This document shows, piece after piece, positions 1 to 57,930 of a stretch of DNA of 57,930 nucleotides. The notes under the pieces are model-generated. The model saw nothing but the letters and a program-made list of their open reading frames with translations. It made no database searches and was not told where the DNA came from. The first letter of the stretch is position 1, and each line of letters opens with the position of its first letter. The translations under genes and the position numbers were made by a program. The DNA is from Minisyncoccota bacterium (lineage in GTDB: Bacteria; Patescibacteriota; Minisyncoccia; UBA6257; GWB1-50-10), in NCBI GenBank assembly GCA_020059915.1, contig JAGVBB010000002.1, positions 128,129 through 186,058 of the forward strand. The letters run 5' to 3'.

Positions 1-1093
1 GGAGAGATAAGAGCACTGGTGTTCCTCCTATTTTTTCCACAAAACGTGTAGCTATTGTTTTATTAAGCGTGGTACGCACGAGATATGATGCGGCAATTGA
101 TTTTTGTTTTGACTGATTTGTTATTGCATATCCAAAATACGATGGGTAACTTAGTGTCTTTTTTGCAGATTTCGGTTGTGGTATTGGTGCAATACCAAAA
201 TTTAAGTTTTGATTTTTTGTTTTAATTGTCTTTATATCACGTTCATAACCGATTATCATTGCAGATTGCTCGGATGCGAATGCATCAATTGAAAACGGCA
301 TAGTCTCATTCCATGTATAGGTTTCTGATTTTGGATCGGAAAATTTTGTATAAAATTCCATCGCGCTTTTTCCTTCATTTCCTGCAAAGGATGCTTGAGT
401 GAACTCTTCGTTAACCATTTTTGCGCCCGCGCGAATCATCAGTGAAGAGAGAATGTCTGATGCATGGAGAATTGTTCTTTCTGTTCCGCCAAGCGATATC
501 GCTGCTTGTTCTATATTTTCATCTTTGTCTTTTTTGACGAGTTTTGGAATCATTTCATCAAGCGCTTCCCATGTTTCCGGTGGGTATATAAATCCTGCAT
601 TTCCCAATATATCTCGGTTATAAAAAAGCACGAGAGTGTCTATGGTATAAGGAAGCGCATATGTTCCATTTTTGTCAGCAAAGTCATATCGCCATACCGT
701 TTCTGGAAATGATTGTTGTAGTTGTAGTGGTGAAATATATTGTGAAGGAATTTGGGCGATCTTATTTTTTAATTTTGGAATGTCGGCATTTTCTACTGAA
801 ATAATATCTGGCGCTTTCCCCAGAGAAAATGCCTCTGTAAGCGCATACATATAAGATTCTTTATCTGGAAATCCTTTATATTGAACTGAAAAATTTGGAT
901 ATTCTGTTTTCATAGAATCAGCCGTACCGATAAAAAATTCATTATCGTTCCCTATGCCCCATATGGAGATAGTTATCGGATTGTTTTTAGGATCATTTGT
1001 TTGGAGTCCTGGAAGAATTCCCACAAGGATGAGAATAAAGAGTGCGACCCCAATACCAACTGCCCCAATGATAAGCATTCGTGAACGGTTCAT
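1..1093 (-). CDS. Extracellular solute-binding protein (ABC sugar-binding type), runs off the window start
   Basis: Not in the ORF track because it is partial. Manual translation from 1093: MNRSRMLIIGAVGIGVALFILILVGILPGLQ...ITISIWGIG...YPNFSVQYKGF...GKAPDII; N-terminal membrane anchor and SBP_bac_1-like motifs. Confidence 0.8.
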   Translation of the reverse strand, partial: MNRSRMLIIGAVGIGVALFILILVGILPGLQTNDPKNNPITISIWGIGNDNEFFIGTADSMKTEYPNFSVQYKGFPDKESYMYALTEAFSLGKAPDIISVENADIPKLKNKIAQIPSQYISPLQLQQSFPETVWRYDFADKNGTYALPYTIDTLVLFYNRDILGNAGFIYPPETWEALDEMIPKLVKKDKDENIEQAAISLGGTERTILHASDILSSLMIRAGAKMVNEEFTQASFAGNEGKSAMEFYTKFSDPKSETYTWNETMPFSIDAFASEQSAMIIGYERDIKTIKTKNQNLNFGIAPIPQPKSAKKTLSYPSYFGYAITNQSKQKSIAASYLVRTTLNKTIATRFVEKIGGTPVLLSL

Positions 1094-1203
1094 CCCGTTA
1101 GAAAATCTGACAATTTGGTTTGTTCGACAATAGGATTATTTCTGTGCGTATATACATATACTATTGGTTATTTATGGATGGTCCGTTTTCTAACGGGATT
1201 CAT
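1088..1203. mobile_element. MITE-like start-codon element, copy 1 (core 1094-1197)
   Basis: 12-bp perfect TIR CCCGTTAGAAAA/TTTTCTAACGGG, flanked on the minus strand by ATGAAT and ATGAAC; the second provides the gene's ATG. Confidence 0.75.
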
Positions 1204-1223
1204 TACCTTTATTATAAACAAAA

Positions 1224-1248
1224 ATCCCACTCTTGGTGAGAGTGGGAT
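1224..1248 (-). terminator. Intrinsic terminator after gyrA
   Basis: Hairpin ATCCCACTCT/AGAGTGGGAT followed by a T-run on the minus strand. Confidence 0.7.
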
Positions 1249-1259
1249 GCTGTTTATTT

Positions 1260-3737
1260 CTAGAGGGCTACAATTCCAATAATTGAATCACCTTTTTCTA
1301 GATTCATAATTTTTACTCCTTGCGTTGCCCTTCCTGCAATACGGATGTCGGAAAGTTTTGTGCGAATTGCCTGTCCTTTAAGTGAAAATGCAATTACCTC
1401 TTCTGCTTCTGGATCAATAATATGTGCAGCAATCACCTTTCCTGTCTTGTCATTTGTTTTTGCTGTCCTAATTCCGCTTCCTCCACGTTTCTGAACTTTG
1501 TACTCTTTTATTGGTGTCTGTTTTGCATATCCATTTCCCATTATTACCAAAAATTGTGTGTCTTGTTTTGTTCCTTTGGAAATAATTGAGAATCCAGCGA
1601 CTACATCTTTTCCTTTTAGATTAATAGCTTTTATACCAGATGCTGTTCTTCCCATTGAACGGACATCCTTTTCTTTAAATCGTATTGATTGTCCTTCGGC
1701 GGTGACAAGAATGATTTCATCTTCTCCCGACGATCGATCTGCCCATTGTAGTGCATCACTGTCTTTTAATGTTATTGCGATAATTCCCGTTCTTCTTACA
1801 TTTGCAAAATCCTTGAAGTCGGTTTTTTTGATGACACCATGATTTGTTGCCATAACAAGAAATCCACTTCCCTCTCCCTTCTTACCCCCCTCAATTCCTT
1901 TGTAATTTACTATTGAACAAATCTTTTCATTTGGTGGAAGTGTAAGAAAATTATGAACCGATTTACCTTTTGATGTTCTTGATGCGACAGGTATTTCATA
2001 GGCCTTGGTTTGGAATACACGTCCTTTGTCGGTAAAAAATAATATATTATCGTGTGTCTCTGTGGTAATTATTTTGTGAATTTGATCTTCTTCTTTTAGT
2101 TCAAATCCAATAAGACCCTTTCCACCCCTTCGTTGTGCCTTAAAGACCGTTGGAGACATACGCTTGATGTATCCATCCTGACTAAGTGTCACTATAACCT
2201 CCTCGTTTTGGATAAGATCCTCTTCCTTAAATTCTTTAATTCCAGAAGAAACAAGTTTTGTTTTTCGTTCGCTGGGATATGTTTTTTTGAGACCACCTAA
2301 CTCATCAGTAATAATCTCAACAATCCGTGTTTCGGACTTCAATATTGCTTTACATTCTGCAATAAATTTTTTCTTTTCTTTTAATTCCTCTTCAATTTTG
2401 ATGCGCTCAAGTGCTGCAAGTGATTGGAGGCGCATTTCAAGAATTGCGTTTGCTTGAATTTCAGAAAGTTTGAATTTCTTCATCAAGTTGGTACGCGCTT
2501 CATCCTTATCTTTAGATTTTTTTATTGTCTCTATAATCTTATCGATTACATCAAGCGCTGTTGCAAGTCCCTCTAAAATATGTGCGCGCTCTTCTGCTTT
2601 TCTCAAATCAAACTCGGTGCGCTTTCGTATCATTAGTTTTCTGTGATCGAGATATGCAGAAAGCACGTCTTTTAATGAAAATATTCTTGGTGCGATTCCA
2701 TTTTCAAGAGCGAGCATATTGAAATAAAAGTTTTTTTGCAATTCGGTGTATTGAAATAACTGGTTGAGTACTTTTTGTGGTGCTGTATCATTTTTTAATT
2801 CAACAACAATACGAAGACCATCGCGATCAGACTCATCGCGGAGATCTCTTATTCCCTCAATTCTTTTTTCTTGTGCTAGCTCTGCCATCTTTGTAATGAG
2901 ATCTGATTTATTTACCTGATAAGGAATCTCGGTTATTACAATTTGGAAACTTCCACTTTTTTTCTCTTCGATCTCAGCAAGTGCACGAATGGTTACTGAT
3001 CCACGTCCTGTTGCATATGCTTCCTCAAGCGCCTTCTTATCAAAAATAACACCACCAGTCGGAAAATCAGGACCAGGAACAAATTGCATTAATTCTTTTG
3101 TTGATGCGTCAGCGTGTTTGGCAAGATACATGGTTGCATCAACTATCTCATGGAGATTGTGTGGTGGAATTGATGTTGCCATACCAACCGCAATACCAAC
3201 GGTTCCATTGAGTAATAAATGCGGAAGTTTAGCTGGGAGATATGATGGTTCAACTCGTGAATTATCATAGTTCGGAATCCAATCTACTGTCTCCTTTTCT
3301 ATATCTGTTAATAATTCTGCAGAGATTTTTGTGAGACGTGCTTCTGTATAACGCATTGCGGCTGGTGCGTCACCATCAATTGATCCCCAGTTACCTTGTC
3401 CATCTACTAATGTATATCTGAGAGAAAAATCTTGTGCCATACGCGCCATTGCGTCATAGACCGCCTGGTCACCATGGGGGTGATATTTTCCTAAAACTTC
3501 TCCAACAACATTTGCTGATTTTTTGAATTTTGCCGTATGGGTAAGTCCCGTATCCCACATTGCCCACAAAATACGTCTTTGTACTGGCTTTAATCCATCT
3601 CGGACATCGGGAAGAGCGCGAGAAACAATAACAGACATTGCATATTGTAAATATGACTCTTGAAGCTCCTCTGTTATTTCCCTTGGTTCAATAGTATCTT
3701 TTGGGATGATATTTTTTTGTTCTTCTTCTTTTTTCAT
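1260..3737 (-). CDS. gyrA: DNA gyrase subunit A
   Basis: [29 protein letters not shown] catalytic Tyr, GyrA-box QRRGGKG, C-terminal pinwheel repeats. Confidence 0.98.
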
Positions 3738-3743
3738 AAATTA

Positions 3744-4166
3744 TTATGGAAGTAATGTCGGTTCAAGTGGCTCTATATCATTTGGTTGAAATGGTATTTC
3801 TTTTATTTCCTCTTTTTGAATAATAACCTCTTTCTTTTTTGTTGCATATTGAAGTGTGTGTGTAAGTCCGTTTTTAAATGTGTTACCCACGGAGAATATT
3901 GATGCAAAAATGTTGTTTGTGGTTATTTTTATTCCTTTCACCATAGATCCGATTATTGAGGTATTTTTTGTTGTTTCAGTTACTATTTCTTGCTTTTCAA
4001 ATACCTGATCACCCTGATTCATACTGGTGCGAGGTAATGTTGCAGAGATATAAATAATCCACACCACAACAATGATTATCATAACCACCCCACTTGAAAC
4101 GATAACCCATCGTCGTTTTGTATGTTCGTCTGAAGATCTAATCTTTTTTATATATTCAGAAACCAT
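3744..4166 (-). CDS. Hypothetical single-pass membrane protein
   Basis: 140-aa ORF tightly packed in the gyrA operon, one N-terminal TM helix. Confidence 0.75.
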   Translation of the reverse strand: MVSEYIKKIRSSDEHTKRRWVIVSSGVVMIIIVVVWIIYISATLPRTSMNQGDQVFEKQEIVTETTKNTSIIGSMVKGIKITTNNIFASIFSVGNTFKNGLTHTLQYATKKKEVIIQKEEIKEIPFQPNDIEPLEPTLLP

Positions 4167-4170
4167 GTTT

Positions 4171-4749
4171 TTATGATTTCAACCATACTACCCGCATTGC
4201 CTTTTCTTCAATTTCCTTTTTTTTGATTGTTAATTTTTCTTCCGCGGTTGCCTCTCTGTTTAATTCCTTAAGAAGTGTGTGTGGCTTTTCGGTGAGTGAA
4301 GGAATTATTATCCCTGGTTCGAGTTGCCGTGTGAGTTTTGCAATTTTTGTAATTTCGAGAAAAGGAGATCCTCCCGCGGGAACTATTGCAATATCATTGT
4401 CAGTGAAGGCAGAGATTGTCTTTGGGTCAAGTTCATTATATAAATGTCCGAGCACTACCAAAGAAATGTCATCAAAGAGTATTTGGTACGCGGTATTTTC
4501 ACATTTTGCTTTTTCATTCCATCCCGTCGAATATCCATGGATACGAACTCCACCAATTTCGTACTCTCCCTGATTTTCAATCCACACAGGAGCGTCCTCT
4601 CCCTCCAGTGGTTCAGAAAATGTCGGTTTTACTGTATTGATAACTACCTGAGCGCCCCTAAAAGATCTTTGATTTTCTGGATCTATAAGGATGGTGTAGT
4701 CTCCTGACTGTATTTTGAAGTAATTTCCTCCTTGATATGTAATAACCAT
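4171..4749 (-). CDS. MBL-fold metallo-hydrolase-like protein (Lactamase_B_3 type, degenerate metal ligands)
   Basis: MVITYQGGNYFKIQ...ILIDP, GEYEIGGV, IAIVPAGG, LEPGIIIPS pattern. Confidence 0.75.
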   Translation of the reverse strand: MVITYQGGNYFKIQSGDYTILIDPENQRSFRGAQVVINTVKPTFSEPLEGEDAPVWIENQGEYEIGGVRIHGYSTGWNEKAKCENTAYQILFDDISLVVLGHLYNELDPKTISAFTDNDIAIVPAGGSPFLEITKIAKLTRQLEPGIIIPSLTEKPHTLLKELNREATAEEKLTIKKKEIEEKAMRVVWLKS

Positions 4750-4851
4750 ATGATATCAACATTGATTATAGAAAATATTTAGCAATTAGGGAATAGCCAT
4801 TTTTTGTTTAACCGTTGCATTTTTTGTTAAAACAACGTATTCTAATGCGGT

Positions 4852-5943
4852 ATGAATATAGTAAAGAACGGTATGTTATTGCTTGCGCAGTTGGTAAAAA
4901 CTGCTCCGCAATTATTTTCTCCACTTAAAGTTGGGGATCTTGTAGAGGGAAAAATAATCGAAAAGAGCTCAAATTGTATACTTGTCGATCTCGGGCGTCA
5001 TGGAACTGGCGTTGTGTATAGGGGTGAATTGCAAAATGCACGCGATCTAGTTAAGGCAATAGAGATCGGGGGTGTGATTAATGGAAAAGTTATTGAAATT
5101 GATAATGAAAAAGGATACACAGAACTCTCACTTACAGAAGCGGGCAGACAAAAAGCTTGGCAGGAGATTGATGAATTAAAAGGAAAAGACGAGGCAATTG
5201 TTGTAAAGCCGACTGGATATAACAAGGGTGGTCTTATTGTTTCTATTCATGGAATCGGTGCATTTCTTCCTGTTTCCCAATTGGCAAATGATCATTATCC
5301 AAAACTCGGTGTTGGCGATAAAACAGAAATTGCTTCAGCTCTTCAAAAATTAGTTGGAGAGGAAATCACTGTAAAAGTTATCGACGCAAATCAGAGAAAT
5401 GGAAAATTAATTGTTTCAGAAAAAGAAGCAGTAGAAGTATCATCTCGCGAGTTGGTAAAAAATTATAATATTGATCAAATTGTTGAGGTAATTGTTTCTG
5501 GTGTTGCTGATTTTGGAATATTTGTAAAATTTGTTGATAATCCAGCAGTTGAGGGACTTATTCACGTATCAGAGCTTGATCATCGCATTGTGGAAAGTCC
5601 GAAGGAAATTGTTAAGGTTGATGAGGTAATAAAAGCGAAGATTGTTGAAATAAAAGATGGAAAGATTTCTCTTTCACTCAAGGCACTCAAAGAGGACCCA
5701 TGGCAAGCGGGATTAGAAAAATATAAGGAGGGAGAGATTGTTCGTGGCACTGTATATATGTTTAATCCATTTGGTGCGGTGGTAAATCTTGATAATGAAA
5801 TACAAGGGTATGTCCATGTTACTGATTTTGGTGGCGCTGATGAAATGAAGAAGGAGATCTCGTTACAGAAAGAATATCAATTTGTTATTGATAGCATAAA
5901 ACCAGAAGAGAAAAGAATTAATCTAAAATTAGTAAAAGAATAA
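4852..5943 (+). CDS. rpsA: S1 RNA-binding domain protein (short ribosomal protein S1)
   Basis: Four S1 repeats (NKGGLIV, AFLPVSQL, DFGIFV..EGLIHVSEL, ISLSLKALKEDPW). Confidence 0.85.
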   Translation: MNIVKNGMLLLAQLVKTAPQLFSPLKVGDLVEGKIIEKSSNCILVDLGRHGTGVVYRGELQNARDLVKAIEIGGVINGKVIEIDNEKGYTELSLTEAGRQKAWQEIDELKGKDEAIVVKPTGYNKGGLIVSIHGIGAFLPVSQLANDHYPKLGVGDKTEIASALQKLVGEEITVKVIDANQRNGKLIVSEKEAVEVSSRELVKNYNIDQIVEVIVSGVADFGIFVKFVDNPAVEGLIHVSELDHRIVESPKEIVKVDEVIKAKIVEIKDGKISLSLKALKEDPWQAGLEKYKEGEIVRGTVYMFNPFGAVVNLDNEIQGYVHVTDFGGADEMKKEISLQKEYQFVIDSIKPEEKRINLKLVKE

Positions 5944-5947
5944 ATTT

Positions 5948-5975
5948 AAAAACCCCATTTCGCATGGGGTTTTTT
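5948..5975 (+). terminator. Intrinsic terminator
   Basis: AAAAACCCCAT-ttcgc-ATGGGGTTTTT hairpin with U-tract. Confidence 0.8.
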
Positions 5976-6044
5976 CTTGTATATTTTTTTAATGCGTGGT
6001 ATACAAAAAATACATTCATTAATAACTAAAGAGAGGAAAGAAAG

Positions 6045-6740
6045 ATGGGAGAGATGAGCCAGAGACATAGAAAAAGTAGAATTTTCCATTTCGTTTTTTC
6101 GTTAGTATTACCACGACTCATAACATTCAAGTTATATGAGCAGGACGAAATTTTTGAAATGATTGAACGGGAATTAGTATTAAATTTCTTGATAAAATCA
6201 AAGAAAGGATCTTTTTCTGAATTAGCAACACGGGCAAAAGAACTTAAAATCCTTTATCAATCACTAAGTGATGAAGAATTGGCGTATTTTCCACACACAA
6301 ATCAAATAGATGGAGAATATGCTGTTCGGTTGTTTCCGTTTTCTCCAGGAGAAGAAAAATCTGCAGAAAGGCAGATGCAGTTTCTAGGGTACCGGCATGG
6401 AACTGGATGTGAGTTGGTACAGTTAGCTTTTGAAAAAAGAAAAATACGAATAAAAAATGGGGCAATAATTGCTAAGGGTACTGCAGCAAAACCGGAAAGA
6501 AATGAACACATTTCTCCAAAATTGGCTGTTGGGGGTGATAAGAAGTTATATTTAAATATTCATGATCATGGTGTGTATGGTTCTCCAACACAGTTGTATT
6601 ATCTTGGTGTATTTGTCCCCAAAAAAAGAAGATCGGTAAATTCAAATATTCAAAGGTATGTTGATTTTATTGACTCTCTTCTTTCGGGCTTATCAAAAAG
6701 TGACAAGGATATGATTATAAAAAAAATATCACGGAAATAA
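6045..6740 (+). CDS. Hypothetical protein
   Basis: 231-aa ORF with its own promoter, SD (GAGAGGA) and terminator; no family recognised. Confidence 0.7.
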   Translation: MGEMSQRHRKSRIFHFVFSLVLPRLITFKLYEQDEIFEMIERELVLNFLIKSKKGSFSELATRAKELKILYQSLSDEELAYFPHTNQIDGEYAVRLFPFSPGEEKSAERQMQFLGYRHGTGCELVQLAFEKRKIRIKNGAIIAKGTAAKPERNEHISPKLAVGGDKKLYLNIHDHGVYGSPTQLYYLGVFVPKKRRSVNSNIQRYVDFIDSLLSGLSKSDKDMIIKKISRK

Positions 6741-6743
6741 TTT

Positions 6744-6778
6744 AACTCCGCCTACTATTGGGCGGAGTTTCTTTTTTT
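6744..6778 (+). terminator. Intrinsic terminator
   Basis: AACTCCGCC...GGCGGAGTT followed by a T-rich tract. Confidence 0.75.
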
Positions 6779-6813
6779 GTATTTTAAGGTATAGTGAATT
6801 GCGTAATAACATT

Positions 6814-8661
6814 ATGAAATCACTTGGAAAAAATATACTATTCACTGTCATTTTTCTTATCATAACCGCACTTCTTTTTGGTGCAGTTCTTGATACTCAA
6901 TCAAAAACACCTGAGGAAATAAGCATTAGTGCGGTAGCAAAAAAAATAATAGATGGGGAGGTCAAAACAATAACAGTACAAGAAAGCGATCTTATACTAG
7001 GACTACAGGATGGTATAGAAATTAAATCAAAAAAAGAAAGTGGTGTTAGTCTCTTGGAGACACTTTCAAGTTATGGGATAACTTCAAGTACACTTGGTAA
7101 TATTGATGTAAATATAAAGGATCAAGGAGGAACAAAGTATTGGATGGGAATTATTATTCCAACACTCATACCACTACTCATTATGGGGTTGATACTTTGG
7201 TGGATGTTTCGTCAGGCGAAGGGTGGTGCAAATCAGGCATTTTCTTTTGGAAGAGTAAATATCCGTTTATTTTCTCCATTGAAAGATAAGATTTTATTCA
7301 AAGATGTTGCGGGCCTTAAAGAAGCAAAGGAGGAACTTTGGGAGGTTGTTGAATTTTTAAAGAATCCAAAAAAATTCCATGCAATGGGAGCAAAAATTCC
7401 ACGAGGTGTTTTACTTATGGGCTCACCAGGAACGGGAAAGACAATGCTCGCTCGAGCAGTTGCTGGTGAATCAGGTGTTCCATTCTTCCATATATCGGCA
7501 TCAGAATTTGTTGAAATGTTTGTGGGGGTTGGAGCGTCTCGAGTTCGCGATCTATTTCAAGTAGCAAAAAAGGCGGCGCCAGCAATTATTTTCATTGATG
7601 AGATTGATGCTGTTGGGAGAGAGCGTGGAACGGGAATGGGTGGTGGTCACGATGAACGAGAACAAACATTGAATCAGATTCTTGTTGAGATGGATGGATT
7701 TGAGCGCGACACTAGTGTCATTGTTGTTGCTGCAACAAATAGACCAGATGTTCTTGACCAGGCACTTCTTCGACCAGGACGGTTTGATAGAAGGGTAATG
7801 CTTGATATGCCGGACATAAGAGACAGAGAAGAAATTTTAAAAATCCATGCAAAGGGAAAACCACTTTCGAAATCAACAGATCTTCATATGGTTGCACTCC
7901 GTACACCTGGATTTGCTGGTGCAGAACTTGCAAATTTAATGAATGAAGCAGCAATTCTTGCGGCAAGAAATAATAGGAAATTTGTTGAACAGGAAGATCT
8001 ATTGGATTCAATCGAAAAAGTATTACTTGGTCCTGCGAGAAAAAACAGGATTATTAATGATCATGAAAAACAGGTTACCGCATATCATGAGGCGGGACAC
8101 GCAATTGTGGCTGCGGTTGTAAAAAATTCTGATCCAGTTCACAAGGTTTCTGTGGTAAGTAGGGGTATGGCTGGTGGATATACATTAAAACTTCCTATGG
8201 AAGAAAAGCGACTTCGAACAAAGTCAGATTTTTTGGGAGAGATAGCTGTTTCATTGGGCGGATATGCCGCAGAACAGGCAGTGTTTAAGGATATTACTAC
8301 TGGATCTTCAAGTGATATACAGCAGGCAACCGATGTGGCGGAGTCACTTGTTACAAAGTATGGTATGAGCGAAAAACTTGGTCCACGTGCATATGGAAAT
8401 GGACAAGAGGTGACATTTTTTGGACGAGGATTGGGATCGGAAAAAGATTATTCTGAAACAATAGGAACTACTATTGATGTAGAAATAAACGAATATATAC
8501 AGAGGGGGCTCCAGACCGCAAAGAAAATAATGGCCACACATCGAAAAGCTCTTGATGGTGTTGCGGCGGCGCTTATTGAAAAAGAGACACTTGAACAAGA
8601 AGAGTTTTATAAACTAATTGAAAATCTTGGTATAAAAAAAGATTCTATTATTTTGAAATAA
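6814..8661 (+). CDS. ftsH: ATP-dependent zinc metalloprotease FtsH
   Basis: 2 TM helices, Walker A GSPGTGKT, Walker [27 protein letters not shown] zinc motif. Start moved to ATG 6814. Confidence 0.97.
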
Positions 8662-16526: not shown

Positions 16527-16581
16527 CTGACAAGCTGATAGTCAAGCTAGGCCTAGATAATTTTGATGTGTCGCACAATAT

Positions 16582-16597: not shown

Positions 16598-16728
16598 TTT
16601 TTAAGATGTTTTTAATCGATTTTATTGAAAAAATGGAAAAACCCGAAAAACCAGGAAAATCTGCCTTATTTTTTAACAAGCTGATAGTCAAGCTAGGCCT
16701 ACATCGTTAAAAAATGTTTATTGAAAAT

Positions 16729-23276: not shown

Positions 23277-23410
23277 ATAGATCCCGTTAGAGGTAGCACT
23301 GCTTTGTGAGGACGTGATTCCAACGGTGTATCTACATAATGTAATACAAAAAACTATGAATAAAAATAAAATGTCGCAATCAAATATGTATTATTTCTAA
23401 CGGGATGGAT
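23277..23410. mobile_element. MITE-like start-codon element, copy 2 (core 23283-23404)
   Basis: CCCGTTAGA/TCTAACGGG TIR flanked by ATAGAT and ATGGAT; the second contains the ATG at 23405. Confidence 0.72.
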
Positions 23411-53141: not shown

Positions 53142-53358
53142 ATGTGTATATCATAATATTCCATTGTGTATTATTCCAAATTGCCATATAATGTATTTAT
53201 GAAGCGGCGGAAGTAAAACCAAAAAATTTCCTTTCCATATTTGTCCGGCTCCCCCCACGCCCCCGCCGAAGAAAAAGGAAAGGTAAGGAAATTTTTTTGG
53301 TTTGGCTAGCGACCGAAGGGAGCACGAGGTGCATTAGTCGAATGCATCAGGATTTTTT

Positions 53359-53426
53359 GCGGGAATGCGTTTGTGTCGCGCCTGCGGCGCGACCCCATTT
53401 CGGCTTCCAATTCCGATTTTCAATTT
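53359..53426 (-). repeat. Post-tRNA-Ser conserved segment, copy A
   Basis: Reverse complement matches 57841-57908 at 67/68 nt. Confidence 0.9.
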
Positions 53427-53516
53427 TGGCGGAGGGGGAGGGATTTGAACCCTCGAGGGGTTTTCACCCCTGCACGATTTCGAGTCGTGTGCCTTCGACC
53501 ACTCAGCCACCCCTCC
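53427..53516 (-). tRNA. tRNA-Ser(CGA)
   Basis: GGAGGGG...CCCCTCC-GCCA, anticodon loop CTCGAAA, long variable arm. Confidence 0.95.
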
Positions 53517-56918: not shown

Positions 56919-56996
56919 TTATCGTGCTCGAAGGTTCATCTTTTTTCCTGCCTTCTTTGCGTGTTTTTTCTTTGCAAGTTTATTTTTCTTATTCAT
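56919..56996 (-). CDS. 25-aa Lys-rich peptide
   Basis: MNKKNKLAKKKHAKKAGKKMNLRAR*; stop abuts the terminator hairpin at 56892-56920. Confidence 0.55.
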   Translation of the reverse strand: MNKKNKLAKKKHAKKAGKKMNLRAR

Positions 56997-57113
56997 CCCG
57001 TTAGAAGTAGATTGCTGTAAATAATCTACATAATTTATTAATTATGTTTCGACTTATATTGTTATATATGATTCACGTATAAAAGTGCAATTGTAACTTC
57101 TAACGGGATTCAT
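56991..57113. mobile_element. MITE-like start-codon element, copy 3 (core 56997-57107)
   Basis: 12-bp perfect TIR CCCGTTAGAAGT/ACTTCTAACGGG with a perfect 6-bp flanking direct repeat (ATGAAT on the minus strand). Confidence 0.8.
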
Positions 57114-57752: not shown

Positions 57753-57840
57753 GGAAGGTTGGCAGAGTGGTCGAATGCGCCGCACTTGAAATGCGGTATG
57801 CCGAAAGGCATCGGAGGTTCGAATCCTCCACCTTCCGCCA
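57753..57840 (+). tRNA. tRNA-Ser(UGA)
   Basis: GGAAGGT...ACCTTCC-GCCA, anticodon loop CTTGAAA, long variable arm. Confidence 0.95.
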
Positions 57841-57908
57841 AAATTGAAAATCGGAATTGGAAGCCGAAATGGGGTCGCGCCGTAGGCGCGACACAAACGC
57901 ATTCCCGC
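57841..57908 (+). repeat. Post-tRNA-Ser conserved segment, copy B
   Basis: AAATTGAAAATCGGAATTGGAAGCCGAAATGGGGTCGCGCCGTAGGCGCGACACAAACGCATTCCCGC, inverted copy of 53359-53426. Confidence 0.9.
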
Positions 57909-57930
57909 CAAAAATTCCCGAATCCAAAAG

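Follow-up and report, generated by a model that had tools for sequence, protein, structure and literature searches.

The window, a stretch of 57,930 nt from a 686-kb Parcubacteria genome, begins with a minus-strand gene whose start codon stands directly behind a short insert. Upstream of this host gene, gyrA ends at a stop codon (1262-1260, minus strand) and is followed on its 3' side by a terminator-like hairpin at 1224..1248 of the same strand, implying that the host gene has its own promoter. The host gene (2..1093, minus strand) encodes a putative extracellular solute-binding protein with an N-terminal membrane anchor, a name that combines an earlier reader's label with our reading of the sequence alone; the ORF is single copy in the genome and intact over 433 codons, 364 of which lie within the window. 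Along the minus strand, the site consists of a -10 box, TATAAT (1211..1216), a 7-nt spacer to the first ATG (1210-1204), an upstream ATGAAT (1198..1203), a 104-nt core (1094..1197) and the ATGAAC of the host gene (1093-1088, with the ATG at 1093-1091), which is the arrangement reported in the preliminary description. The core, running from 1197 to 1094, opens with CCCGTTAGAAAA and closes with TTTTCTAACGGG and is bounded by perfect 12-nt terminal inverted repeats (1186-1197 and 1094-1105); the exact terminal 12-mer occurs twice in the window, as these two arms. As was also described before, the second ATG lies 110 nt downstream of the first and out of frame with it (110 mod 3 is 2), and no GGAG-type motif or other Shine-Dalgarno (SD) sequence precedes it.

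A comparison with relatives lacking the element had been proposed as a check, and two contigs, one each from separate metagenome studies (X2 and X3, ~97-98% identical), are indeed without exactly 110 nt, namely the 104-nt core and 6 flanking nt. The joint of the empty allele connects 1088 to 1199 with an ambiguity of 5 nt, matching the ATGAA direct repeat, which is present once in the empty allele and twice in the filled one. A duplication of 4 bp plus the end base pair and a duplication of 5 bp plus 1 nt both fit the site, and the upstream ATGAAT can be read as the duplicated host start ATGAA followed by a T, the pairing partner of the A in the rebuilt start. The empty allele reads TATAAT-7 nt-ATGAAC, with the identical box 7 nt before its single ATGAAC; in the genome, a -10 box ~7 nt before the ATG is found in 22.5% of 426 long ORFs, compared with a background of 6-9%. 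Judging from the position of the box relative to the predicted start, the host gene was leaderless before the insertion. The insertion is real and recent, and it landed, in the present lineage, in the predicted leaderless start of the solute-binding-protein gene, giving this gene an upstream ORF and a hairpin leader, as had been proposed. The empty alleles are new here, together with the likely route of expression considered below, and filled and empty alleles make ready construct pairs for reporter work. Two congeners (G401 and G417) have an empty site at eno as well, and no insertion of the same subfamily as this insert (hereafter copy 1) that is orthologous between species was found among the two congeners searched.

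The ends of copy 1 match the family core CCCGTTAGA / TCTAACGGG perfectly (12/12 nt). The end pair CCCGTTAGA...TCTAACGGG occurs nine times in the genome and a control pattern read backwards does not occur (0), while across the order the pair is present in 165 of 401 genomes (controls, 0). Eight of the nine genome copies are gene-less and one, of 277 nt, encodes an 88-aa GIY-YIG nuclease; in all nine, a start codon is flush with the element. Two more copies lie in the window. One (23283..23404, plus strand, 122 nt), whose upstream triplet has decayed to ATA (ATAGAT), precedes a 104-aa ORF that starts at ATG 23405 and is putatively gamma-glutamylcyclotransferase-like, again from the sequence only, and contains a 14-codon ORF ending at a TAA 7 nt before the host ATG. 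The other (56997..57107, minus strand, 111 nt) has ATGAAT on both sides and a downstream ORF of just 25 codons. Among 77 distinct elements, 32 of the 38 T..A-ended copies of 91-130 nt adjoin an ORF of at least 50 codons, compared with ~2.5% for any position. Single-copy eno, pgk and lepB of the genome carry inserts of the same kind.

With its 104 nt, its terminal inverted repeats, the absence of a transposase gene, eight gene-less copies in the genome and a target-site duplication (one ATGAA when empty, two when filled), copy 1 has the characters of a MITE. The target would be start codons of the form ATG-purine-purine, where insertion would duplicate TGRR or ATGRR and the last base of the element, A, would rebuild the ATG behind it. 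As we read the sites, the end base of the element supplies the first base of the host start codon; locus L033 reads ATGAA[C..G]TGAA and so has a GTG start, and L073 and L081 have GTGAA upstream and ATGAA downstream. We estimate with a probability of about 0.9 that copy 1 is a gene-less, MITE-like copy of a very small Parcubacteria mobile element, which has a GIY-YIG parent of ~275 bp, targets start codons and rebuilds the ATG. No published description of a start-codon-targeting GIY-YIG element was found in the literature searched. Such insertions would mean that selfish DNA can occupy the most sensitive spot of a gene in genomes with almost no spare room, and in the annotation of hundreds of Patescibacteria genomes they would lead to short ORFs and wrongly placed upstream starts and mask the true promoters.

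The parent form is seen in the full-length copy (G000:C2:131650-131926), which shares its inverted ends with copy 1 and has the 88-aa ORF between them; beyond the ends, the two interiors are not alignable by eye. The protein consists of one GIY-YIG domain at residues 4-70 (Pfam PF01541, E = 5.5e-18, 65.5 bits against a cut-off of 22.6), an NCBIfam search with it gave nothing over the cut-off (best TIGR01453, 22.4 bits versus 56.05), and its nearest solved relatives are the UPF0213 proteins BH0048 (1zg2, E = 1.6e-9) and EF2693 (1ywl). The full form generally measures ~275 bp, and a GIY-YIG nuclease of 85-95 aa is the sole gene between the inverted ends. In all 21 full-length T..A-ended copies the terminal TGA overlaps the host ATG (ATGA); an ORF of at least 50 codons lies downstream in 19 of them, and in 10 the nuclease ORF begins at the duplicated host start. 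The nuclease is at most a candidate for moving the element: enzymes of the GIY-YIG type cut DNA by hydrolysis, and no strand-joining activity is known for them. A mobile element with a hydrolytic GIY-YIG nuclease as its only protein would seem to stand outside known transposition chemistry.

Several known systems share some of these features. The Correia/NEMIS elements of Neisseria are MITEs of ~100-150 bp, co-transcribed with genes, with terminal inverted repeats and hairpins in mRNA leaders, and the present elements are like them in size, terminal inverted repeats, short target duplication, many copies beside genes and leader hairpins. Correia elements, however, duplicate TA, have no tie to start codons and rebuild none, and we know of no parent element with a GIY-YIG gene for them; membership in Correia/NEMIS was rejected because the duplication here is (A)TGAA and not TA. 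IS200/IS605 elements with their PATEs, and REP/RAYT, are also very small, insert beside a 4-5-nt word, have a subterminal hairpin that is recognised in single-stranded DNA and give rise to gene-less derivatives, so that very small size, sequence-specific insertion and gene-less derivatives are common to them and the present family. They nevertheless use an HUH tyrosine transposase with a covalent joining intermediate and make no duplication, whereas the insert here lies between direct repeats of 4-5 nt and the family's only gene encodes a hydrolytic GIY-YIG nuclease. Translational coupling by an overlapping (ATGA) or closely spaced stop and start is well known, and the present elements resemble it in the TGA/ATG overlap of the 21/21 full-length T..A copies and in the TAA 4 nt before the ATG in gene-less copies; unlike in the textbook case, the upstream cistron comes from a mobile element, whose inverted end includes the stop codons.

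A likeness in gene content is seen with the Ssn nucleases (cd10448), which are accompanied by hairpin repeats of the NTS/SRM type (Chenal et al., Nat Commun 2025, PMC11893778). In the available text of that paper, Ssn is a single-domain GIY-YIG protein of ~100 aa (88 aa here) whose gene is flanked by inverted-repeat sequence, many gene-less repeat copies are scattered through the genome, and the insertion-sequence-like layout is noted by the authors themselves (PMC11893778). Each Ssn/SRM flank, in contrast, is a self-contained hairpin of 20-50 nt, while here pairing is between the two ends of a single element, and the same text reports neither a target duplication nor a start-codon position, both of which are seen here (PMC11893778). 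The terms 'start codon', 'Patescibacteria' and 'Parcubacteria' have 0 occurrences in that text, and the role shown for Ssn in it is modulation of transformation, not mobility (PMC11893778). Its Discussion also cites IS200/IS605 and REP/RAYT.

What the insertion did to the leader can be followed codon by codon at copy 1. The first ATG, at the old leaderless position, opens uORF1 (1168..1203, minus strand), which reads MNPVRKRTIHK over 11 codons and stops at TAA 1170-1168, in agreement with the translation given earlier. Codons 3-7 of uORF1 form the left stem arm, its frame is shared with the nuclease ORF of the 275-nt full-length copies, and its TAA splits an otherwise open 36-codon frame reaching the ATGA overlap. 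A second short ORF, sORF2 (1098..1157, minus strand; 19 codons, MYIRTEIILLSNKPNCQIF), starts 10 nt after the uORF1 stop and ends at TAA 1100-1098, inside the right end and 4 nt before the host ATG; it lacks an SD, and the MFE fold shows partial pairing of its AUG. For copy 1, translational coupling of uORF1 with the host gene through ATGA was ruled out, because the uORF1 stop lies 77 nt before the host ATG, and an in-frame N-terminal extension was ruled out as well (110 nt, with stops). In-frame N-terminal extension does occur in four short copies elsewhere (L022, L023, L050 and L054). The predicted RNA stem is 16 bp and not 12, because the flanking AT on each side pairs too, and the A and U of the true AUG are paired within it. 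The fold of the whole 144-nt leader (-28 kcal/mol, z = -1.19; 21 of 200 shuffles as stable) is unexceptional, so the folding signal is the perfect terminal stem and not the overall energy. Rfam 15 covariance models in E-value mode gave no element match over the gathering score in loci L001-L006. The only match above threshold in these loci was a tRNA elsewhere in L004.

We propose that the gene is kept readable by a relay from uORF1 to sORF2 and then to re-initiation at the true AUG, a route to which we give even odds. Transcription would still start from the old -10 box, and ribosomes would load on the old 5'-terminal AUG and read the 11 codons of uORF1, thereby melting the left arm of the 16-bp stem, in which the true AUG otherwise has its A and U paired. 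After the uORF1 stop they would restart 10 nt on at the sORF2 AUG, translate its 19 codons across the right arm as far as the TAA that the right end provides and, having terminated there, re-initiate at the true AUG 4 nt past it. The relay would be a degenerate form of the full-length design, where the nuclease ORF often starts from the duplicated host ATG and its TGA always overlaps the rebuilt ATG. The right end is open in the host frame, has a TAA at -7 in another frame and a TGA at +1 in the third if host codon 2 begins with A, and owing to this three-frame layout any ribosome reaching the right end would be delivered to the host start. The start codon would thus be both copied and rebuilt by the element, with ribosomes apparently passed on, and the locus would be a natural model of leaderless initiation and of termination-reinitiation in bacteria that do not grow on their own.

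The retention of the second ORF supports the relay. sORF2 is free of stops and indels in 4/4 copies of its subfamily; in a sister copy (X2 and X10) it differs by 2 synonymous changes and 1 R-to-H change, and the 20 nt before it by 3 substitutions and 1 indel. Of the gene-less copies, 7/8 in the genome and 12/12 in two congeners contain an ATG-ORF of 14-34 codons whose end is at -7 or +1. Defining a delivery ORF as an ATG-ORF of at least 14 codons that runs to the right end, we counted 44 carriers among the 55 gene-less copies (20 genome groups), compared with 19 for the element flipped in silico and 13.3 +/- 3.1 in local shuffles, an excess whose z-like value overstates independence because the copies are related and part of which may be ancestry, as shuffling also destroys an inherited coding frame. 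Averaged by genome, the count is 13.8 versus 4.5 of 20. Simple descent from the nuclease ORF does not explain the excess, since 34 of the 44 delivery ORFs end in the TAA frame and not in the nuclease's own terminal frame. Other findings count against the relay. The upstream triplet is ATG in only 29/55 gene-less copies, so that its first step is dispensable elsewhere; sORF2 lacks an SD and has a partly paired AUG; and the third window copy is without a delivery ORF. The frame of the upstream ATG is open in 14/39 copies, where the two other forward frames score 12 and 6 and the three reverse frames 9, 5 and 2, a test too weak to use, for which reason the delivery-ORF test was preferred.

The decay of the upstream ATG (26/55 copies) and the weak frame test (14/39) also speak for a tolerated leader in which the short ORFs are remnants, with direct SD-less initiation at the true AUG while the stem breathes or while the right arm is unpaired during transcription. 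SD-like motifs are found in just 14.1% of the 426 long genome ORFs, compared with 8.2% background, and since SD-less starts prevail in this genome, ribosomes may initiate directly on the true AUG. The third window copy, which has no delivery ORF, fits this explanation too. The burial of the A and U of the true AUG in a 16-bp stem speaks against it, however, as do the delivery ORFs themselves (44/55 versus 13.3 expected and 19 flipped), mostly in a frame that descent from the nuclease does not predict, and we consider a tolerated leader doubtful, though the likeliest of the alternatives. The low SD frequency also bears on the preliminary description, which held that without an SD the gene must be translated by re-initiation, scanning, bypass or RNA processing. 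The necessity was overstated, because the absence of an SD is the rule in this genome; among the options listed, re-initiation is the best supported, given that sORF2 ends 4 nt before the true ATG.

Silencing by the insert had been offered as the other outcome. Copy 1 could be a young, mildly harmful insertion, the host gene being poorly translated or silent and its ORF not yet decayed; the site is polymorphic, with two related populations lacking the insert, uORF1 is cut short by TAA in an otherwise open 36-codon frame, and the host gene is not obviously essential. The host ORF is nonetheless intact over its whole length, and inserts of the same subfamily with a similarly short uORF1 precede single-copy eno and lepB. 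Both genes are expected to be needed, eno for glycolysis and lepB as signal peptidase I. We regard a harmful copy 1 as improbable, and silencing is unlikely as a general outcome when single-copy eno, pgk and lepB carry such inserts.

In Neisseria, RNase III cuts mRNAs at the hairpins that Correia elements form, and a perfect 16-bp stem whose base abuts the AUG could be processed in a similar way, so that an mRNA beginning a few bases before the true AUG is read as leaderless. A cut within the stem would, however, leave a short leader and not a 5'-terminal AUG, and the excess of delivery ORFs would be left unexplained; we hold such processing for quite improbable, even more so than a harmful insertion. 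An internal promoter that starts transcription at the second ATG had been named in advance as what would make the element neutral. The AT-rich centre, a TA-rich near-palindrome with TAnnnT words, could in principle provide one, giving a transcript with the right arm only and no hairpin. The four sister copies do not share these words, though, and a promoter scan found no sigma-70-like site on the gene strand in 950-1350, including the insert, a weak test because the host's own TATAAT, having no -35 match, was missed as well. Near the second ATG, the positions where a -10 box would normally stand are taken up by the invariant end of the element, and an internal promoter is very unlikely. Contigs only were available from the RNA-library runs X10 and X14, and none of them bridges 807-1091. 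One X10 contig includes the sister copy, at a different locus and with both flanks, which is not proof of transcription.

T4 gene 60 and the shunting of plant pararetroviruses are precedents for ribosomes that hop, and at copy 1 AUGAA stands on both sides of the insert and is brought side by side by the stem, so that a ribosome with initiator tRNA might hop over the closed hairpin from the first AUG to the second. Take-off and landing codons do match (AUG AAU / AUG AAC), but take-off is followed by CCC GUU AGA, none of them a stop or hungry codon, and the gap is without an SD-like stretch. Both features belong to the gene 60 cassette as given in the available text of Manning and Atkins (bioRxiv 10.1101/2022.08.31.505936). 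The gap here, 104-110 nt, also exceeds the 50 nt of gene 60, and the first AUG is lost in 26/55 copies, including the full-length copy before pgk; of all the alternatives, we find such a bypass the hardest to credit. The gene 60 cassette is carried by a MobA element and is like copy 1 as a mobile element inside a gene with its own translational device sparing the host product; it differs in that a 50-nt hop takes place inside a phage topoisomerase coding region, whereas a start codon and apparent termination-reinitiation are concerned here (bioRxiv 10.1101/2022.08.31.505936).

Returning to the relay, we tentatively consider a broader reading of the family, which as a whole is rather unlikely to be correct: a 'translationally transparent' transposon that is self-contained at ~275 bp and may be the smallest autonomous one, with a three-frame pad, selected delivery ORFs and targeting of ATGRR in single-stranded DNA. 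The inverted end would serve as a landing pad from which every incoming ribosome is passed to the start rebuilt by the element, and selection would keep an internal start and an open frame to the pad in the gene-less copies. An Ssn-like nuclease would read ATGRR only in the single-stranded DNA of a transcription bubble or R-loop, at the 5' ends of genes. In sister species, different subfamilies are found at the same start codons (queA and an mreC-like gene), and such targeting would explain why these are hit in common.

On the minus strand of the window, the gyrA stop codon (1262-1260) is followed by a terminator-like hairpin (1248-1224), a TATAAT (1216-1211), seven bases and a first ATG in the word ATGAAT (1203-1198). 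Directly behind it stands the 104-nt core of an insert (1197-1094, copy 1), which opens CCCGTTAGAAAA and closes with its exact reverse complement, and the next word, ATGAAC (1093-1088), opens a 433-codon ORF (364 codons inside the window) labelled a solute-binding protein in the preliminary description. The first ATG begins an upstream ORF, MNPVRKRTIHK, that ends at TAA 1170-1168, and the second lies 110 nt 3' of the first, out of frame and with no SD-like motif before it. The layout proposed earlier, including this peptide and the displaced start, can thus be read in the window sequence in every element. The missing SD is unremarkable in this genome: among the 426 ORFs with 200 or more codons, 14.1% have an SD-like motif between -18 and -4 (8.2% in control windows), and 22.5% a -10-like hexamer 4-9 nt upstream (background 6-9%). 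What sets the locus apart, unlike the missing SD, is a stem over the start codon; in the RNA fold the two arms, each extended by its neighbouring AT, form a 16-bp stem whose pairs include two bases of the second AUG, A and U. The folding energy of the whole 144-nt stretch was ordinary (z = -1.19; 21 of 200 shuffles fold equally well).

We aligned contigs of four public runs to window positions 1-8000. Copy 1 was missing from one contig of metagenome run X2 (2,897 nt) and one of metagenome run X3 (3,639 nt), which come from different studies and whose flanks differ from the window by about 1-3%. In both, 1088 is joined straight to 1199, with exactly 110 nt skipped and 5 nt fitting either side; therefore the empty allele reads TATAAT, 7 nt, ATGAAC, a standard leaderless arrangement. 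Copy 1 is a real, recent insertion, and the core idea of the preliminary description, a leaderless gene converted into one with a uORF and hairpin leader, has held in the comparison with alleles lacking the element. In X2, 117 other letters replace the 15 nt preceding the start codon (ATG 6815) of a 620-aa ORF (window 6799-6815), which looks like a family copy at that start codon, absent from the window strain. A second empty site is eno, which carries a 105-nt copy in the genome studied; two congeners (G401, G417) are without the element, their eno start reads TATAAT, 8-9 nt, ATGGAG, and their enolase is 78% identical.

The filled allele contains ATGAA twice, and the 110 nt skipped equal the 104-nt core plus 6. 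Two models fit copy 1: a 4-bp duplication (TGAA) with an outermost T..A pair in the element, or a 5-bp duplication plus one T. Flanks at loci other than copy 1 favour the 4-bp duplication as the probable one. At L033 a C..G-ended element is preceded by ATGAA and the host start is now GTGAA, while at L073 and L081 GTGAA stands upstream and an ATGAA start follows a T..A element. From these flanks, the element's last base seems to provide the initial base of the rebuilt start codon.

The start-codon element was identified as a member of a large and apparently unpublished family; full-text literature searches returned no description of it. In the genome studied (686 kb, 7 contigs, 37% G+C) the end pair occurs in nine copies, all directly followed by ATG and an ORF: lepB, the solute-binding protein, a 104-aa gamma-glutamylcyclotransferase-like protein, a 25-codon ORF, pilT, eno, pgk, an mreC-like gene and queA, the names being read from translated N-termini rather than family searches. 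All nine have ATGRRT or a one-base variant upstream, with T as the sixth upstream base. The words ATGAA, ATGAG or ATGGA occur 6,794 times on both strands, and therefore the word alone cannot account for the position of the element. With a 40-400-nt interior, the end pattern was found in 165 of 401 genomes sampled from the order, in up to 36 copies per genome, and a backwards-read control pattern in none of the 401. Position was tested on 77 distinct elements in the loci examined (9 from the genome studied, 36 from another genome, G384, and one or two from each of the others). Of the 38 T..A-ended copies of 91-130 nt, 32 lay flush against the start of an ORF with 50 or more codons; for an arbitrary position the rate is about 2.5%. 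Among C..G-ended copies, only 3 of 23 were flush with an ORF start. Short members with C..G outer bases (L012, L014, L015, L023, L027 and others) are 58-80 nt long and G+C-rich, share the end core and have interiors resembling two small hairpins; given the 3 of 23, they may behave differently. The G384 loci L040-L073 form a 116-121-nt subfamily with a subterminal hairpin beside one end, whose stem varies between copies on both sides (e.g. GGTCGCC/GGCGACC and GGTCATC/GATGACC), suggesting that the hairpin is recognised. The queA and mreC-like start codons are occupied both here and in a congener by different subfamilies (189 and 105 nt, L039/L134; 186 and 97 nt, L038/L139), which suggests either that these sites were hit more than once or that one element replaced another.

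In front of pgk, the 277-nt copy encodes an 88-aa ORF with a GIY-YIG domain (Pfam, E = 5.5e-18); its closest relatives of solved structure are BH0048 and EF2693, both UPF0213 proteins. This long form is present in 52 of the 401 genomes, most of which have one or two copies. Of 31 distinct long matches in the loci examined, 27 carry an ORF 70-110 codons long. T..A ends occur in 21 of the 27; in all 21 the nuclease ORF ends in a TGA overlapping the host ATG, and in 19 the host ORF that follows has 50 codons or more. The nuclease ORF starts at the duplicated host start itself in 10 of the 21, and there the duplication together with the left end codes for the first residues of the protein, MNPVR. 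Copy 1 falls short of the common 275-nt form by 171 nt (57 codons), and therefore its uORF is in frame with the nuclease; its 36-codon frame up to the ATGA overlap is open but for one TAA. The nuclease-bearing form is the putative parent of the gene-less copies, with a putative role in moving the element. A second small GIY-YIG ORF (83 aa; contig C2, 200852-201301) lies between inverted ends of other sequence (CCCCGTGAGATA) and does not abut a start codon: about 40 nt separate it from the next ATG. Around a third (87 aa, C2:90599-90820) no inverted ends were seen.

Copy 1 contains a second short ORF, which begins at ATG 1157-1155, ten bases past the uORF stop, runs for 19 codons across the right arm and ends at TAA 1100-1098 inside the end sequence, with four bases left to the host ATG. 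Where ATGA follows the right end TCTAACGGG, the host frame is open, the second frame has TAA at -7 and the third TGA at +1. The short ORF is free of stops and indels in all four copies of the 104/105-nt subfamily, whose uORFs vary in length (11, 11, 20 and 27 codons) and frame. Compared with a sister copy at another locus (X2 and the RNA-library run X10), copy 1 differs by two synonymous and one R-to-H change in this ORF, and by three substitutions and a 1-nt insertion in the 20 nt before it. Such ORFs of 14-34 codons occur in 7 of 8 gene-less copies in the genome studied and in 12 of 12 in two congeners. In the former, the only copy without one is the third in the window, which precedes the 25-codon lysine-rich ORF (MNKKNKLAKKKHAKKAGKKMNLRAR), the two lying within 56919-57113 on the minus strand. 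The wider count took in 55 gene-less, host-associated copies in 20 genome groups. Of these, 44 have an ATG-ORF 14 or more codons long, ending at -7 (34), at +1 (9) or as an in-frame fusion (1). With elements flipped in silico the count was 19, and with interiors shuffled in 24-nt windows 13.3 +/- 3.1; the copies are related, and shuffles erase inherited frames. Averaged per genome group, the counts were 13.8 vs 4.5 of 20. Alignable interiors gave 20 same-orientation pairs and 2 opposite, so orientation is biased, not fixed, and the bias could by itself produce some of the gap to the flipped control. A simpler frame test run earlier had given a weak result. Most of the ORFs (36 of 44) begin at an internal ATG, at a median 0.35 of element length, and only 8 at the duplicated host ATG; the upstream triplet remains ATG in only 29 of the 55. 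Four short copies of 66-87 nt (L022, L023, L050, L054) read in frame with the host with no stop, adding about 24-31 residues, ending SNG, before the original start.

On this evidence, we infer that the short ORF may be a delivery device for ribosomes: its translation would open the right arm of the stem and end beside the host start codon, where the ribosome would re-initiate, and the old leaderless AUG, with the uORF, may feed it in copy 1. No contig from two RNA libraries spans the start of the solute-binding-protein gene. Among the possibilities listed in the preliminary description (re-initiation, scanning, bypass, RNA processing or silencing by the insert), re-initiation appears best supported on sequence grounds, through a second short ORF that had escaped notice there. 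Silencing is unlikely as the general outcome, since eno, pgk and lepB, single-copy in a genome scored 100% complete, each carry such an insert.

MITEs such as Correia elements and IS200/IS605-type single-strand transposition are alike in single features only, as is the gene 60 bypass cassette in the available part of its source. The closest published system found is the Ssn family, alike in its GIY-YIG nuclease and in repeats flanking the gene. According to the available part of the source (PMC11893778), Ssn are single-domain GIY-YIG nucleases cutting single-stranded DNA beside hairpin repeats, which flank the nuclease genes and lie scattered in hundreds of copies, an insertion-sequence-like layout remarked by the authors; that part mentions neither start codons nor Patescibacteria and reports no target duplication.

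Other repeats in the window are a 112-nt inverted repeat, 89% complementary (53352-53463 and 57804-57915, arms 4.3 kb apart), with a tRNA in its right-arm region (L004 2257-2341), and a 29-nt direct repeat, 97% identical (16530-16558 and 16676-16704), whose copies are 146 nt apart.
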